Origin: a virus
Taxonomy: Duplodnaviria > Heunggongvirae > Uroviricota > Caudoviricetes
IMG/VR virus record: IMGVR_UViG_2597489870_000008
DNA length: 40,859 bases
Strand: one strand, 5' to 3'
Both the position numbers and the translations under genes were made by a program. Under the pieces are notes generated by a model. That model saw only the letters and a program-made list of their open reading frames with translations, was not told where the DNA came from and searched no databases. Below, in pieces: positions 6,613-37,974 of this stretch (positions are counted from its first letter, which is position 1; each line of letters starts with the position of its first letter).

Positions 6613-7661
6613 GAAATCGTCCCCAGAACCGCCAGTTCATTTTTTGCAATGGAGATATTGTCCGCCGGTGCAAGCAACTGATGGCTGTATTCCCCGTTCG
6701 CACCGGAAATCGCTTCACTGATACGTGACACCTTCAGTTCTCCCTGCGGATAACCATCACGCAGCAGGAACGAACGCAACTCGGCGGTGATGGCAGCCCG
6801 TATTTCCGGTGTGTCCGGCGTCACGCGGATATGAAAATCCACTTTATGCGCCACCGGCCTGAACACATACAAATCAGAGCCTGCCACCGGGGCCAGTGGC
6901 CCGATATGTTGTCTTGCCGCCGTTTCCGTTGATTCTTCCGGAATGGGATTAATCAGGTCACTGCTGGCAATCATCACACCGACAGTTCCCGTTCCCATCC
7001 AGTGACGGTATGTCCATGCGCGGGTAATGCCGGGCACTTCTTTAGCCCAGACGACATAGTCCCCGTCAGCCCCGCCCTGAGGCGTCCAGTAATACCGCTC
7101 AATGACGCGGGCGCGCCACGTTTCCAGATCTTCAGTATCGAATCCGCCAGTCAGGGTATCTGCAACACCGGAAGACGGCAGACCATTCACCGGCGTGACC
7201 AGGATTAATGCCGTACCGTCGTCAGCGTTACCGACCGCGCCTGTAGTTGAGCAAGTGATCGGCACACGCAGGACACCACCGGAGCTGGTTGCATCGGCAG
7301 TTGCCGTGTACTGAACCAGGTCATCGCGCTGAATCACGCTCCCGGCAGTCACCTTCAGGCCATCACTGACACCTTCCCAGCGCATATACCCGCTGGCAGC
7401 CGTGGCCCCCTTGCGCGGACACCGTTTCATCGCAGCATGTCGCGCCAGCCAGGACTCATCGCACAGGTCAGGCAGCATATTCATTGCCAGATAATCGATG
7501 TACCCGTAAACCGTATGCAGCGCCGCCGCATACACCTTTGCCCGCACGTCTTCATCCATGCGCCGGAGCGTGTCGCTGACGTCCAGCCTGGCGAATAAAT
7601 CGTTACGGAGCATACTGATATTTTCTGCCAGCGTCGGGCGCTGAAATTCACTGTCCGCCAT
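6603..7661 (-). CDS. Baseplate J-like protein (Mu gp47-like)
   Basis: 352-aa ORF in the conserved position and of the expected size; start overlaps the upstream gene. Confidence 0.75.
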
Positions 7662-33148: not shown

Positions 33149-33178
33149 AATGTAGGATATCCAACATGTCAATGTCAA
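33149..33178 (-). promoter_or_regulatory. PR-like promoter (TTGACA-N18-TACATT on the minus strand) overlapping an 18-bp operator ATGTAGGATATCCAACAT
   Basis: The -35 and -10 hexamers lie on the minus strand with the palindromic operator at 33150-33167 across the -10; the same module recurs inverted downstream of cI. Confidence 0.5.
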
Positions 33179-33212: not shown

Positions 33213-33866
33213 ATGATGAACATGAGTGATCGTATTCGCCAAAGGCGAAAAGAACTGAACCTGACACAACAAGCACTGGCTGATTTGACTGGTGTGAACC
33301 GTGTCACGGTTACTGGATGGGAAAAGGACGACTACCAACCAAATGGAGCCAACCTTCAAGCCCTAGCCAACGCACTTAAATGCGATCCTCTGTGGCTTGT
33401 TAGCGGAAAAGGCTCGCCTGAACCAAAGATAAATCTAAAACCTGAAATATTCGCAGTTAAAAAAGTCCCCCTCATCTCGTGGGTTCAGGCGGGTTCATGG
33501 ACAATGACGGAGCCTGGTGTCAGGAAAGAAGATGCTGAAGAGTGGGTTTATACTACCGCCCTTGTATCAGAAATGGCATTTGCACTACGGGTCCGTGGTG
33601 ATTCAATGACCAATCCCCTCGGCTCACCATCGATACCAGAAGGTTCTATCGTTATCGTAGAGCCAGATATTATTGATACAGAGTGTATTAACGGAAAAAT
33701 CGTTGTTGCCCATATCAATGGTGGGCAAGAAGCGACACTCAAAAAATTTGTTGAGGACTGGCCGAACAGGTATCTCGTCCCACTAAATCCTAACTATAAA
33801 ACTATTGAATGCGGTGAGAACTGCAGAATAGTTGGTCTTGTCAAACAAGTAATAATGGATTTTTGA
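33213..33866 (+). CDS. CI-like prophage repressor (HTH plus LexA-like S24 peptidase domain)
   Basis: ORF with an N-terminal HTH (…LNLTQQALADLTGVNRVTVTGWEKDD…) and C-terminal S24 autocleavage region (…LRVRGDSMTNPLGSPSIPEGSIVIVEP…); no SD, so possibly leaderless. Confidence 0.85.
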   Translation: MMNMSDRIRQRRKELNLTQQALADLTGVNRVTVTGWEKDDYQPNGANLQALANALKCDPLWLVSGKGSPEPKINLKPEIFAVKKVPLISWVQAGSWTMTEPGVRKEDAEEWVYTTALVSEMAFALRVRGDSMTNPLGSPSIPEGSIVIVEPDIIDTECINGKIVVAHINGGQEATLKKFVEDWPNRYLVPLNPNYKTIECGENCRIVGLVKQVIMDF

Positions 33867-33886: not shown

Positions 33887-33912
33887 AAAACCGGGGTATC
33901 CCCGGTTTTTTT
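33887..33912 (+). terminator. Intrinsic terminator downstream of cI (CCGGGG-tat-CCCCGG plus T7)
   Basis: Perfect 6-bp GC stem followed by seven T, 25 nt after the cI stop. Confidence 0.6.
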
Positions 33913-33928: not shown

Positions 33929-33982
33929 ATGTAGGATAACCAACATAAACTCTTGACACTCACATGTTGGATATCCTACATT
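33929..33982 (+). promoter_or_regulatory. PL-like rightward promoter (TTGACA 33953-33958, TACATT 33977-33982) flanked by two operator copies
   Basis: Operators ATGTAGGATAACCAACAT (33929-33946) and ATGTTGGATATCCTACAT (33964-33981) bracket a consensus -35 and overlap the -10. Confidence 0.5.
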
Positions 33983-34140
33983 TGTTTTTAGAGTTGTGGT
34001 GAAGGCGCAGGCTGATGCGCGAAAGACATTGCAGCTATTGCGGAAAAGAGCTGTTCGGCGGGGCAATTAAACGCCCGTGAGAGTCTGAAATAACCGCAAG
34101 CCGGAGATCAGCACCGGTCACCACAACAGCCACTGCTTTG

Positions 34141-34187
34141 GCGGTACCAGTTTGTACACTTGCTTCCGGCTGGTACCGCTCTTTTTA
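34141..34187 (+). terminator. Leader terminator or attenuator in the early-right operon (10-bp stem plus UCUUUUU)
   Basis: GCGGTACCAG…CTGGTACCGC perfect 10-bp stem with a 19-nt loop followed by TCTTTTTAC, about 170 nt downstream of the PL-like promoter and before the first gene. Confidence 0.45.
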
Positions 34188-34323
34188 CAAAACAGAGAAG
34201 AGCATCACCGGACGACGGGCTCATAACCCAATCCATCCGGGCGGCTGCCACCGCAGGTGTTCTTCTCTGTTTTGTGGAGAAACCAACCGACCTTGCAGGG
34301 TCGATATGATGAGGAGCAGCAAA

Positions 34324-34686
34324 ATGGCTAGCGAACGCAGTACTGATGTGCAGGCATTTATCGGGGAGCTGGACGGCGGCGTATTTGAAACCAAAATCGG
34401 CGCAGTTCTCAGTGAAGTCGCTTCAGGTGTGATGAACACGAAAACCAAAGGTAAGGTCTCACTCAACCTGGAAATCGAACCATTTGATGAGATCCGTGTA
34501 AAAATCAAACACAAACTCTCATATGTTCGCCCGACTAACCGCGGGAAAATTTCCGAAGAAGACACCACCGAAACGCCGATGTATGTCAATCGCGGTGGTC
34601 GCCTGACTATTCTGCAGGAAGACCAGGGACAATTACTGACTCTTGCCGGTGAACCTGACGGAAAACTCCGCGCAGCAGGTCATTAA
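34324..34686 (+). CDS. Hypothetical early protein (120 aa; possibly YfdP-like)
   Basis: GAGGAG 7 nt upstream of the ATG at 34324; first gene of the rightward early operon; no family recognised with confidence. Confidence 0.55.
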   Translation: MASERSTDVQAFIGELDGGVFETKIGAVLSEVASGVMNTKTKGKVSLNLEIEPFDEIRVKIKHKLSYVRPTNRGKISEEDTTETPMYVNRGGRLTILQEDQGQLLTLAGEPDGKLRAAGH

Positions 34687-36593: not shown

Positions 36594-37402
36594 TGACCAC
36601 ATTTACCGATAAAGAACTGATTAAAGAAATCAAAGAACGAATCAGCAGCATGGACGTGCGAGACAATGTTGAGCGCCGTGCTTATGAAATTGCTCTGGCA
36701 TCGCTGGAAGAGGATCCGGTGGCATGGCTGCATTCAGACAATGGCTTAGGTATTCCGGCAATAACCAGGAGTAAAAACATTGCTGACAGTTGGTTATCAA
36801 AGGGCTGGTATGTTCAGCCGCTATATATAGCCAAGCCAGTGTCGGTGGTGCCAGATGCTCGTCCATCTTTAAATAATGGCATAGTCGGTTTTGATGAAGG
36901 CTGGAACGCCTGCCGAGCTGCCATGCTCTATGGTGCCGTACCTGCAAGCCAGGCTTACAAGTTGCCACAAACGCAGTTTAAACAGGTTGCTGACCTCTAC
37001 GAAATGCAATTTGATGACGGTCGCACTTGTACCTTTCACACTGATGCGCAAAAGGCTGTGCAATGGCTTCAGGCATGCGACGGAAACAGGGTTCAGGAAT
37101 ACGTTAAGCTGGAACGATTGCAGAACGCACTGTCTGGCAACTCTCCGGTAACTCCGGATGGTTGGGTTATGGTGCCGAAGAGACTAACAGCCGAGAACGG
37201 CGCTAAGGGGGCGCTATCCGGTGAATTTTCAGAAACTACGTTTATAAGCTGCCTGGAATGCTTTGGCGATGATGATTGCGATACCTGTGACGGGAGCGGA
37301 CGTATTGAAATTAAAGTGCCAGTCACGTGGTCGACCATAAAATCTATCTGGGATAAAGGTATCGAGTATTTTGCAGCAAAACCATCACAAGAGGTGAAGT
37401 GA
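36593..37402 (+). CDS. Hypothetical phage early protein (possibly Ead/Ea22-like)
   Basis: 269-aa ORF with a GGAG RBS and a C-terminal Cys/Asp cluster (CLECFGDDDCDTCDGSG); family assignment uncertain. Confidence 0.55.
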   Translation: MTTFTDKELIKEIKERISSMDVRDNVERRAYEIALASLEEDPVAWLHSDNGLGIPAITRSKNIADSWLSKGWYVQPLYIAKPVSVVPDARPSLNNGIVGFDEGWNACRAAMLYGAVPASQAYKLPQTQFKQVADLYEMQFDDGRTCTFHTDAQKAVQWLQACDGNRVQEYVKLERLQNALSGNSPVTPDGWVMVPKRLTAENGAKGALSGEFSETTFISCLECFGDDDCDTCDGSGRIEIKVPVTWSTIKSIWDKGIEYFAAKPSQEVK

Positions 37403-37974
37403 TGAACAACTTAATGATCGACCTTGAGACGATGGGGAAAAATAAGGATGCACCGATCGTTTCCATTGGCGCGGTGTTCTTCACCCCAGAAACAGGAGAC
37501 ATCGGACAAGAATTCTATACGGTTGTCAGCCTAGGCAGTGCTATGAAGCAAGGAGCTACACCTGACGGCGATACCATCCTGTGGTGGTTGAAACAGAGCT
37601 CTGAAGCACGAGCTGCAATCTGTATTGATGATACTTTGTCGATCAGCGATGCTCTCTCAGAACTAAATCATTTCATTAACCGGCACGCAGCCAATACGAA
37701 ATATTTAAAAGTCTGGGGTAACGGGGCCACCTTCGACAACGTAATTTTACGTGGAGCTTATGAGCGAGCAGGGCAAATCTGCCCGTGGGCATACTGGAAT
37801 GACCACGATGTACACACGATCGTTACGCTTGGGCGTTCCATCGGATTCGACCCCAAAATGGACATGCCTTTCGATGGCGAACGGCACAACGCCCTGGCCG
37901 ATGCCCGTCATCAGGCAAAATATGTTTCCGCTATCTGGCAGAAATTAATTCCTGCCACCAGTACAGAATTATGA
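37402..37974 (+). CDS. 3'-5' exonuclease (DnaQ-like DEDD family)
   Basis: MNNLMIDLETMG… (Exo I motif D-x-E) with later …HNALADARHQAKY… (Exo III motif); GAGG RBS. Confidence 0.7.
   Translation: MNNLMIDLETMGKNKDAPIVSIGAVFFTPETGDIGQEFYTVVSLGSAMKQGATPDGDTILWWLKQSSEARAAICIDDTLSISDALSELNHFINRHAANTKYLKVWGNGATFDNVILRGAYERAGQICPWAYWNDHDVHTIVTLGRSIGFDPKMDMPFDGERHNALADARHQAKYVSAIWQKLIPATSTEL

Follow-up and report, generated by a model that had tools for sequence, protein, structure and literature searches.

The PL leader of a lambdoid prophage read as a composite of mobile, tRNA-like RNA modules

The stretch between a PL-like promoter and the first early-left gene, yfdP, is filled with conserved, covarying RNA structure, and homology to different phages begins and ends exactly at the boundaries of the structured parts. 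We propose, from sequence comparison and with moderate confidence, that this leader is a composite of independently folding RNA modules that are exchanged horizontally among phages. The modules appear to derive from tRNA genes. Because the same modules lie inside the tRNA clusters of unrelated phages, the leader is better read as a launch pad for small RNAs than as a peptide-dependent or N-type control device; their presence at other sites away from PL (tRNA clusters, positions 3′ of Q and, for a relative of STnc100, 3′ of stx2B) argues against a device specific to PL leaders. In N-less lambdoid prophages, the leaders of early operons are usually taken for blank spacer or labelled "structured leaders" and left unexplained. 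Portable RNA parts of this kind would tie together two poorly understood features of phages, namely, structured leaders of great length and the part of tRNA arrays that is not tRNA.

Anatomy of the leader

The window, the whole 40,859-nt stretch of Caudoviricetes DNA that was analysed (IMG/VR record IMGVR_UViG_2597489870_000008), carries these features in and around the leader:

33887..33912, + strand: intrinsic terminator of the cI-like repressor gene, AAACCGGGG-UAU-CCCCGGUUU followed by Us, read from the sequence
33929..33981, no strand assigned: OL operators, 18-bp palindromes at 33929-33946 and 33964-33981 that flank or overlap PL
33953..33982, + strand: PL-like sigma-70 promoter, TTGACA/18-nt spacer/TACATT, 10/12 consensus matches
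33993..34127, + strand: type A, a cloverleaf-like RNA assigned to a putative STnc100 superfamily from its mosaic boundaries, covariation, a pseudoknot swap and its relationship to STnc100
33993-34002 with 34118-34127, + strand: closing stem (stem P1) of type A
34005-34008 with 34017-34020, + strand: stem P2 of type A, with loop L2 at 34009-34016
34015..34080, + strand: 21-codon micro-ORF from the ORF list, judged non-functional
34021-34099, + strand: variable domain of type A
34100-34104 with 34114-34118, + strand: stem P4 of type A, with loop L4 at 34105-34113
34140..34186, + strand: hairpin 1, a 13-bp stem with a 15-nt loop and then a U-run; terminator-like, possibly where the type A RNA ends
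34182..34280, + strand: type B, defined by a 25-bp closing stem, covariation, an independent consensus fold and identity to tRNA-fMet
34182-34206 with 34256-34280, + strand: closing stem of type B
34208-34240, + strand: hairpin a of type B, carrying GGG-CUCAUAA-CCC at 34217-34229
34241-34254, + strand: hairpin b of type B
34288..34303, + strand: hairpin 3, CGACCU-UGCA-GGGUCG, GC-rich and lacking a U-run, 5′ of the first ribosome-binding site
34311..34686, + strand: yfdP, with ribosome-binding site GAGGAG at 34311-34316, ATG at 34324 and stop at 34686 (RefSeq annotation, Pfam)

A preliminary description of this DNA had put about 340 nt between promoter and gene, and the distance from the –10 element to the yfdP ATG is 342 nt; the other features that it listed were likewise all found at or close to where it had placed them. 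The operator palindrome recurs at the divergent PR region (33150-33167), and a palindrome search returned 6 matches against 0.19 expected, which marks 33953-33982 as what we take to be a genuine repressor-controlled PL. The cI-like repressor gene (33213-33866) encodes Peptidase_S24 and HTH_3 domains. By spacing alone, transcription from PL is predicted to start at about 33989-33990. The first seven early-left genes contain no N-type Pfam family, in agreement with the earlier remark that no N-like gene is evident.

The leader as a whole folds with z = –6.2 and its 3′ half with z = –6.4, with 0 shuffles as good in either case. The 5′ half alone is thermodynamically ordinary (z = –1.7), yet its structure has strong covariation support. 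Covariation among homologues, a check that the preliminary description had recommended for related prophages, is found in the stems of type A, hairpin 1 and type B alike. Its idea of a single RNA device thus survives in part: the RNA is structured and conserved, but it is a mosaic of separately mobile modules and not one attenuator.

The type A module

Type A combines a covarying 9-bp closing stem, two kissing loops, L2 (AGGCUGAU) and L4 (AGAUCAGCA), and a hypervariable middle that in one copy (L224) contains a whole tRNA. Its mosaic edges coincide exactly with the ends of stem P1. The module is 97.8% identical to a unit in the tRNA cluster of phage P1, in which the flanks are unrelated, and the ends of type A are >90% identical among unrelated phages. 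IMG/VR holds 119 unique copies with covarying closing stems, and carriers of the module, both phages and prophages, span many Proteobacteria (Alpha-, Beta- and Gammaproteobacteria). The invariance of L2, and that of the anticodon-like loop of type B, is partly ascertainment, as homologues were gathered with patterns that fix these parts. Of 120 hits in a scan of a genome collection, about two-thirds are chance matches in coding sequence (LKAQAD-type); a filter passed 37, four of them lacking the 3′ block, which leaves about 33 real hits. Those with a listed organism are all from Proteobacteria except one Flavobacterium-labelled MAG.

Across 65 distinct cores and 24 pairs, 92% of cells are paired, and 13 pairs are changed on both sides (141 cells); slid partners pair only 28-50% of the time, and 0/500 shuffles, a control that ignores phylogeny, score as high. 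The kissing loops have undergone a double compensatory swap in one relative (L329), from GCUGA/UCAGC to GUCGA/UCGAC. This is the one real variant from a loop-independent scan for such covariation, in which the other 119 of 120 hits are chance matches in GC-rich genes.

All but one of 52 neighbouring tRNAs lie on the same strand as the module, and in phage tRNA clusters (P1, Klebsiella phages) both type A and type B occupy the tRNA strand. The tRNA detectors called a tRNA-Met with an intron in the type A slot of a relative (L125, a sister unit), and T arms and CAU anticodon arms are evident as tRNA fragments in sister units. A hairpin and U-run follow type A in 28/101 copies, and in several relatives the module sits between a Q-like gene and a terminator. 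No conserved protein neighbour (best cluster, 11/101 loci) and no associated recombinase were found among 101 loci, and a literature search for the exact core sequences gave no match.

Hairpin 1 and the type B module

The strands of hairpin 1 (34140-34152 and 34168-34180; –20.7 kcal/mol) are followed by a C and UUUUU at 34182-34186. The intrinsic terminator proposed at 34141-34187 is thus borne out as a GC-rich stem directly followed by a U-tract and conserved with covariation. RNAalifold finds 5 covarying pairs in the stem, and related leaders have compensatory stem variants; a T-run is present in 58/78 unique type B contexts, and its distance is fixed in the 21 copies with a confirmed stem. 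Efficient terminators have short loops (3-8 nt); the loop here is 15 nt, and those of leader relatives are 13-19 nt or more. Because its loop exceeds the limit of 8, hairpin 1 was not listed by a consensus terminator scan. We regard hairpin 1 as terminator-like but probably leaky. The conservation of its position, with compensatory stems, makes some attenuation of PL at this point plausible, so that the attenuation suggested earlier may hold locally, although not as a single attenuator governing the leader. In the mosaic, hairpin 1 moves together with type B and not with type A. It lies directly 5′ of type B in lambdoid leader copies, and hairpin 1, type B and the GGAGAAAC motif keep a fixed arrangement among relatives. 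Hairpin 1 may not terminate at all and could instead be one domain in the fold of the type B RNA.

The perfect 15-bp long-range stem noticed earlier is real but forms only the core of the 25-bp helix that closes type B and that includes the U-run of hairpin 1. With 25 consecutive pairs, G-U included, the helix exceeds the length of at least about 20 bp expected of RNase III stems and is a candidate RNase III processing stem. Among type B copies, 95.7% of cells are paired, 11/18 pairs show compensatory change, and 0/500 shuffles, again drawn without regard to phylogeny, score as high; the RNAalifold consensus recovers the fold independently. Within hairpin a, 34217-34229 reads GGGCUCAUAACCC, three G-C pairs closing a CUCAUAA loop, and a 14-nt string, CGGGCUCAUAACCC, occurs unchanged in the initiator tRNA of E. 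coli, the gene for which was found in 5426/5426 genomes. Hairpin a thus resembles the tRNA-fMet anticodon stem-loop closely enough to be a candidate mimic of it, and each of the four loop subtypes seen retains U33-CAU-A37. Of 89 type B copies, 19 have a nearby tRNA; all of these tRNAs are on the same strand, and most end about 20 nt upstream of the motif. Type B is seen mainly in enterobacterial phages. In its Klebsiella version, a 6-7-bp acceptor-like stem with (A/G)CCA (NCCA) after it stands in for the long stem. The type B copy in e14 has a mutated loop. An ORF of the ymfH type over type B was rejected as coding: hairpin b, 15-40 nt long, breaks any reading frame. Some annotated "proteins", such as YmfH of e14, are probably RNA. 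A type B family with an exact initiator-tRNA anticodon arm is new and suggests binding partners to test.

Known relatives, rival readings and a possible course of expression

The closest known relative of type A may be STnc100 (RF02076)/PasD, likewise a prophage-borne RNA of roughly 130-200 nt. STnc100 shares with type A a multi-branch fold closed by N-UGGUG/CACCA-N and followed by AAU and a 5′ hairpin, together with a 3′ hairpin, CCGG...CCGG, that stacks on the closing stem ahead of an intrinsic terminator. In cmscan, the STnc100 model aligns the common UGGUG-AAU...CACCA frame with type A, and a leader variant (L007) and unit A4 of phage P1 carry, nearly unchanged, the STnc100 3′ hairpin CCGGG-AGGCA-CCCGG (AGGAA in P1). 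The link to a superfamily rests on these junction motifs, at scores below the RF02076 threshold: the type A of L171 reaches 20.1 bits against a gathering threshold of 47 and 153.8 bits for a bona fide STnc100, and in the window the leader is not matched by the STnc100 model at all, even with E ≤ 10 allowed. Type A differs from STnc100 in its own invariant L2 and L4 kissing loops, its far wider host range across Proteobacteria, its hypervariable middle and, here, its location at PL rather than in the late region. One Stx2a phage carries both STnc100 and this leader. A preprint on Pas sRNAs places PasA-D in late or structural regions, and they are distinct from the modules described here. If the link holds, STnc100/PasD, studied in Salmonella, EPEC and EHEC, would sit in a larger tRNA-like superfamily with a swappable middle, which would give a rationale for their rapid diversification.

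Other parallels are architectural. As with lambda 6S RNA (PR′-tR′) and StxS, well established in lambda and Stx phages, a small RNA would be delimited by a phage promoter and a terminator close to it, and read-through would express the operon; the type A copies of several relatives, between a Q-like gene and a terminator, occupy just this niche. Here, in contrast, the promoter is a repressed PL with no Q- or N-type factor evident, and the RNA is not a phage-specific leader sequence but a member of a structured family that is widely mobile. Like the RNase III site of the lambda N leader and the stems of rRNA and tRNA precursors (processing stems flank 16S and 23S rRNA), type B has a near-perfect 25-bp helix enclosing a structured domain upstream of the first gene, but the enclosed domain is itself conserved and the Klebsiella version has its short stem and NCCA instead. 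With tRNAs and tRNA-like RNAs (the tmRNA domain, YrlA, and the P4 CI and P1 C4 RNAs, which are processed by RNase P) the modules share the helix order acceptor-like, D-like, variable, T-like, a loop-loop "elbow", a CAU anticodon-like loop and location in tRNA operons. They differ in that type B lacks a D arm, type A has a 9-nt "T loop" and a 9-bp "acceptor", and the window copies lack a CCA end. ARAGORN (standard, intron, mitochondrial and tmRNA modes) calls nothing for the window modules, nor do the Rfam models for tRNA (RF00005), tmRNA, YrlA and C4 recognise them; Rfam searches of the window at gathering threshold, of the leader at permissive settings and of 13+4 related loci returned only tRNAs and sub-threshold STnc100. 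The tRNA detectors called only the L125 sister unit and the tRNA embedded in L224.

We posit the following for the composite leader, where we infer the steps from transcription start through termination or read-through and processing to any action in trans. Transcription from PL would begin about 3 nt upstream of type A. Part of the transcripts would then acquire a terminator-type 3′ end at hairpin 1 and its U-run, yielding a small RNA of about 195 nt resembling STnc100; the large conserved loop of hairpin 1 suggests that this terminator is leaky. Transcripts that read through would cross type B, an RNase III-type 25-bp stem around a three-way junction that bears the copy of the initiator-tRNA anticodon stem-loop, and then hairpin 3, before continuing into yfdP and the rest of the early-left operon. 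PL output would thus be split passively between an abundant short structured RNA and a scarcer mRNA, and the embedded RNAs would probably be freed by host tRNA- and rRNA-processing RNases.

An improbable alternative is that type A is a cis-acting RNA antiterminator that, like put of HK022, would bind the transcribing polymerase as the first RNA to emerge from PL, let it read through hairpin 1 and terminators further on, and so replace N. Both phages would be N-less lambdoids with a structured RNA at the start of an early operon, 5′ of terminators; type A begins at about +4 of PL with a conserved terminator-like hairpin downstream, its core is extremely conserved, as expected of contact with a conserved machine, no N-like gene was found among the early-left genes, and in some phages type A has a Q-like gene immediately upstream and a terminator downstream. 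Yet in neither sequence nor architecture does type A resemble putL or putR, and no HK022 record is among the listed leader hits. The put RNAs, of about 70 nt, consist of two stem-loops; type A has a four-way junction, a pseudoknot and a variable domain. Hairpin 1 and type B persist in related PL leaders that lack type A (L039) or have other units in its place, and type A, unlike put, occurs in non-leader contexts, including tRNA clusters, as does its relative STnc100 at the 3′ end of the stx2 operon. Often it directly precedes a canonical terminator, as a small-RNA gene would. The string at 34177-34186 (CGCUCUUUUU) resembles boxA but varies, relatives having GCCCUUU, GUCCUUU or GCAUUUU. The dedicated antiterminator entertained in the preliminary description thus loses ground. 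Slightly less probable still is a leader that is a non-functional graveyard of decayed tRNA genes, whose hairpins are harmless and shield untranslated RNA from Rho. The tRNA fragments in sister units, the altered e14 loop and the shuffling, gain and loss of modules between relatives would all fit decay, but not the invariant loops and junctions amid massive compensatory stem change in phages of three proteobacterial classes, nor the >90% identity of module ends in unrelated phages or the fixed arrangement of hairpin 1, type B and the GGAGAAAC motif.

We consider it very unlikely that the leader is a MITE- or attC-like DNA element: discrete units with inverted repeats, precise edges and a variable interior would suit one, but the terminal repeats of type A are not conserved and covary, the given strand has more G-U than A-C pairs, orientation is tied to downstream terminators as well as to tRNAs (51/52 for type A, all for type B), no target-site duplication was noted and no associated recombinase was found. 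Attenuation through the 21-codon micro-ORF has hardly any credibility. The ORF exists, exactly as first described, and lies upstream of hairpin 1, but its ATG falls within the invariant CUGAUGCGC core of the RNA family (the P2/L2 motif), it has no properly spaced Shine-Dalgarno sequence, and its stop codon is 60 nt before hairpin 1, with no alternative antiterminator pairing found in the leader. Nor is the peptide conserved: the ORF ranges from 2 to 138 codons in 101 copies, and near-identical copies differ by seven substitutions and one frame-shifting replacement, all peptide-altering (one silent GAA>GAG is untabulated), two of these differences being compensatory for an RNA hairpin. The micro-ORF is a non-coding by-product of the RNA motif, and the proposed peptide-dependent control falls with it.

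Compatible with the anatomy of the composite leader is a bolder idea, possible but on balance doubtful, that types A and B are immediate-early tRNA mimics acting in trans, A mimicking the elbow and acceptor and B the initiator anticodon arm. They would titrate or divert a factor that recognises tRNA, for example a nuclease of a defence system or toxin that cleaves tRNA (the anticodon loop of initiator tRNA is cut by VapC-type enzymes), or else the 30S P site and initiation factors. The 14-nt identity and constant U33-CAU-A37, the cloverleaf helix order and elbow, the Klebsiella stem with (A/G)CCA, the overt tRNA-Met-like gene in the type A slot of a relative, the position on the tRNA strand of tRNA clusters and early expression from PL all favour such mimicry. 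Against it, the argument is inferential, no protein neighbour is conserved among the 101 type A loci, tRNA detectors, mitochondrial and intron modes included, call neither module, a literature search found no precedent for a phage tRNA-fragment decoy, and the STnc100/PasD relatives are reported to be Hfq-associated base-pairing small RNAs. Equally tentative, and judged from sequence, is the wider claim that A and B are two unrecognised phage RNA families that arose from a tRNA-Met-like gene and function as tRNA mimics, with STnc100/PasD as one small enterobacterial branch of A. If true, phages would express A and B at once from PL, PR′ or tRNA operons to manipulate a host process that recognises tRNA.

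In the minimum-free-energy fold, 34129-34139 pairs over a long distance with the ribosome-binding site of yfdP, but this pairing is not conserved and was dropped. An identical locus with yfdP, the first early-left gene, is annotated in E. coli SEC470 (RefSeq), and relatives have hairpins of other sequence at the position of hairpin 3, often with a UGCAG-type loop.

The PL promoter and a mosaic leader

The prophage in the window is a lambdoid element of the CPS-53/mEp460/SfV type, present as an identical copy in E. coli SEC470. Its early-left control region contains the following features:

33213-33866: S24/HTH repressor gene, with its own terminator at 33887-33912
33953-33982: PL, a sigma-70 promoter (TTGACA-18-TACATT) downstream of the repressor gene terminator
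33150-33167, 33929-33946 and 33964-33981: copies of the 18-bp palindrome ATGTWGGATAWCCWACAT, operators of PR/PRM and PL

Two palindrome copies bracket and overlap PL, the third lies at the divergent Cro promoter, and matches number 6 against 0.19 expected; the promoter at 33953-33982 is therefore the repressor-controlled PL. The PR/PRM-side promoter has identical TTGACA-18-TACATT hexamers. Early-left coding begins with yfdP at 34324, 342 nt past the -10 element, and the intervening leader contains each feature that a preliminary description had listed: the promoter-to-gene gap, a hairpin, a long-range stem and a micro-ORF whose 21-codon reading frame is indeed open. Pfam assigns the first seven early-left genes to YfdP, DUF2303, a YfbR-like HD protein, DUF551, an unknown protein, an Rv2179c-like exoribonuclease and a PrtN-like protein; no N-type family was found among them, in agreement with the same description. 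The exoribonuclease (37399-37971, + strand; 3'-5', RNase T superfamily, E = 6.6e-75) could conceivably be linked to leader RNA maturation.

The whole leader folds far more stably than shuffled controls (z = -6.2), as does its 3' half (z = -6.4); the 5' half alone does not stand out in this way (z = -1.7). BLAST searches of phages and of 5,426 E. coli genomes reveal homology that begins and stops at sharp points, as in a mosaic. The stretch 33993-34128 recurs in mEp460-type phages with unrelated flanks and, at 97.8% identity, within the tRNA cluster of phage P1 and of P1-like plasmids, between tRNA-Thr and tRNA-Ser. From 34139 on, the sequence is shared with SfV, with cdtI and, at 83.5%, with the K-12 e14 prophage; the e14 copy sits immediately 5' of xisE and carries the annotation of the 3' part of 'ymfH'. 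Copies of the 3'-half core occur in ST64B and, right after a tRNA, in Klebsiella phages. We describe the leader content as a composite of mobile, apparently tRNA-derived structured RNAs: type A, a cloverleaf-like module (33993-34127) that would form a new branch of the STnc100 kind; the terminator-like hairpin 1; type B, a long stem enclosing hairpins a and b (34182-34280), which is absent from Rfam and from the literature searched. Hairpin 3 (34288-34303) follows type B.

Related leaders carry other units in the type A slot, such as long-stem units with T-arm-like cargo, and one (L039) has an empty slot. On the reverse strand of L125 the slot holds a tRNA-Met(CAU)-like gene, about 180-50 nt upstream of that leader's hairpin 1, with a 46-nt insertion and the acceptor stem GUUGUGG/CCACAAC, as in type A. 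In phage P1, some 900 nt of 'empty' sequence from tRNA-Thr to tciA (L005 1419-2330; also L003) is an alternating array of long-stem units, whose hairpins are T-arm-like or CAU anticodon-like, and GUUGUGRUGA...UCAYCACAAC units, one of the latter being 97.8% identical to 33993-34128. The tRNA-like units in the slot, the T-arm-like cargo and the P1 array together suggest that the modules descend from tRNA genes and were then selected as new structured RNAs.

Type A and the STnc100 frame

Both 30-nt ends of type A are more than 90% identical across phages of Klebsiella (T1-like and 157-kb), Escherichia, Erwinia, Aeromonas and Pseudomonas, with an unrelated middle. A pattern scan of IMG/VR returned at least 119 unique copies and the consensus 5'-N7-UG-AAU-GCGC-AGGCUGAU-GCGC-(30-300 nt)-AA-GCCGG-AGAUCAGCA-CCGGC-CA-N7'-3', in which loop L2 is partly fixed by the retrieval pattern. 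The N7/N7' segments vary among copies yet remain complementary (GUUGUGG/CCACAAC, GAUUGGA/UCCAAUC, AUGCAGA/UCUGCAC, AGCGGUC/GACCGCU). Among 65 distinct cores, counted after removal of the variable middle, the 24 proposed pairs are 92% paired, with two-sided changes in 13 pairs (141 cells); none of 500 shuffles, which ignore relatedness, equalled the observed pairing or covariation, and sliding the partners lowers pairing to 28-50%. Four positions of the closing helix P1 show 19-32 compensatory sequences and zero broken pairs, and on the given strand G-U pairs outnumber A-C pairs (29 vs 12). The two loops are mutually complementary (GCUGAU with AUCAGC), and one copy from a loop-independent scan has GUCGA with UCGAC, two simultaneous compensatory changes.

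At gathering thresholds Rfam has no family for type A; in a permissive search one copy aligns to STnc100 (RF02076) at 20 bits, against a gathering value of 47. STnc100 shares with type A the closing helix (...UGGUG/CACCA...), the AAU junction and a 5' hairpin, and its 3' hairpin, CCGGG-AGGCA-CCCGG, is identical or nearly so in the type A variants of phage P1 and a related PL leader (L007). Phage Stx2a_1447 carries both this PL leader and a bona fide STnc100 (L474 1501-1716, 153.8 bits), 75 nt downstream of stx2B. Given the shared frame and the bridging 3' hairpin, type A, whose match stays below the threshold of the Rfam model, is best placed in an STnc100-like superfamily, as a large and very broad branch not captured before.

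Within 1.5 kb of type A copies, 51 of 52 tRNAs are on the same strand; in the L224 copy (type A element at about 7013-7210), the variable region harbors a whole tRNA-Ser(gct) that ARAGORN and Rfam each detect. A hairpin and U-run follow some 30-110 nt 3' of type A in 28 of 101 copies, many being canonical short-loop terminators (one called by a consensus scan), and several copies occupy the PR'-tR' niche, directly 3' of Q-like genes and 5' of lysis genes. No consistent protein-family neighbor of type A was found. In a scan of one genome per species 37 matches passed the filter, four without the 3' block; real copies number about 33, the rest of the scan's matches being chance hits in coding sequence, and the real copies with an organism listed come from Alpha-, Beta- and Gammaproteobacteria, save one Flavobacterium-labelled MAG. 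In the window, the linker AGCCACUGCUU (34129-34139) pairs with the yfdP Shine-Dalgarno/start region (34316-34330) in the minimum-free-energy fold. Hairpin 1, type B and hairpin 3 would all lie inside this pairing, which is not conserved among SfV-type relatives.

Hairpin 1 and type B

The hairpin proposed as an intrinsic terminator is present at 34140-34180: a 13-bp stem around a 15-nt loop (-20.7 kcal/mol), then C and UUUUU. Its stem base, GGCGG/CCGCC, is kept while the upper stem covaries (GGUACC, GGCGUC/GACGCC, GGCAUCC/GGAUGCC, GGUAAC/GUUACC), and its loop is large and pyrimidine-rich in every copy, unlike those of the short-loop terminators that follow type A elsewhere. Of 78 unique type B contexts, 58 have a T-run 5' of the long stem, and these take in essentially every lambdoid PL-leader copy; the spacing is fixed in the 21 with a confirmed hairpin 1 stem. 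The U-run doubles as the outer 5' strand of the type B helix, opposite an invariant GGAGA(AA); the 15-bp long-range stem noted earlier exists as the core of this 25-bp helix (34182-34206 with 34256-34280). Immediately 3' of the stem, the nearly invariant GGAGAAAC (34277-34284 and all lambdoid copies) pairs with the U-run, with no start codon at Shine-Dalgarno distance from it.

A second IMG/VR scan yielded 89 unique type B copies. All have the closing stem, whose length is 25 bp in lambdoid leaders and 14-18 bp in P1, whereas Klebsiella phages have 6-7 bp plus (A/G)CCA; all also have hairpin a, in which a 7-bp stem leads through an asymmetric internal loop to GGG-NUCAUAW-YCC, and a variable hairpin b of 15-40 nt, whose loop is at times a T-loop-like UUCCUAA. 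In 22 distinct sequences 95.7% of cells are paired, with two-sided change in 11 of 18 pairs; none of 500 shuffles (relatedness ignored) reached this level, and slid partners gave 34-50%. Independently of these counts, RNAalifold on 12 leader copies, e14 included, recovers hairpin 1, the 25-bp stem and both type B hairpins, a (including the three G-C pairs) and b, and counts 12 pairs as compensatory; it and the slid-partner controls agree with the shuffles. Covariation in relatives, the check originally suggested, was seen for stems of type A, type B and hairpin 1.

Part of hairpin a, CGGGCUCAUAACCC (34216-34229), exactly matches the anticodon stem-loop of the E. coli initiator tRNA, whose gene sequence was found in every one of the 5,426 genomes. 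The loop has four subtypes (CUCAUAA, UUCAUAA, UUCAUAU, GUCAUAU), sharing a U-CAU-A that is mostly imposed by the retrieval pattern, which partly fixes this loop. A tRNA lies near type B in 19 of 89 contexts, always on the same strand and mostly ending about 20 nt 5' of the motif. The e14 'ymfH' CDS (L002 2863-3174) overlaps hairpin 1 and type B, and is therefore probably RNA, not protein; its anticodon-like loop is mutated to UUAAUAA.

Peptide, antitermination and a proposed passive partitioning

The structures seen in the leader are real, and their reading as an attenuator or antiterminator is only partly supported. A peptide-dependent device finds no support: the micro-ORF ATG is the AUG of the invariant CUGAUGCGC (L2/P2), inside the RNA motif, and the frame from it runs 2-138 codons (median 14) in 101 type A copies. 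Among nine copies sharing the window's middle, all tabulated differences alter the peptide (seven amino-acid substitutions and one frame-shifted, hairpin-replaced copy, in which an untabulated silent GAA to GAG was seen by eye), and GGG>AGG with CCG>CUG is compensatory for the RNA hairpin. HK022 putL and putR resemble the leader neither in sequence nor in topology, and the boxA-like CGCUCUUUUU is not conserved in relatives. Type A as a put-like antiterminator fits poorly: it occurs in tRNA clusters and before canonical terminators and is missing from some sister leaders. No upstream sequence competing with hairpin 1 was found.

Passive attenuation at hairpin 1 is what we propose instead, within a scheme to which we give about an even chance. 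Upon induction or infection, PL would fire and type A would be made first, as an STnc100-like scaffold whose middle can be exchanged. Some transcripts would stop at hairpin 1 and its U-run, leaving a small RNA about 195 nt long; large loops are atypical of efficient terminators, hence the proposed leakiness. Read-through RNA would fold type B, with a 25-bp stem of the RNase III substrate type, followed by hairpin 3 just ahead of the ribosome-binding site of yfdP; host RNases would probably release the modules, by analogy with tRNAs in clusters housing the same modules. The net effect would be passive partitioning plus attenuation rather than a switch. The prophage small RNAs STnc100 and PasD are expressed and associate with Hfq, and Hfq-dependent base pairing via the variable domain is, by analogy, one lead on a role in trans; tRNA mimicry is another, with type B offering the initiator anticodon arm and type A the elbow-like kissing loops. 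Separately, a 15-nt single-stranded linker, GCUGUGUGUAGUCUU, absent from the window, is conserved just 5' of hairpin 1 in six leaders with differing upstream units (L007, L034, L040, L104, L021, L012) and could be a seed-like segment.
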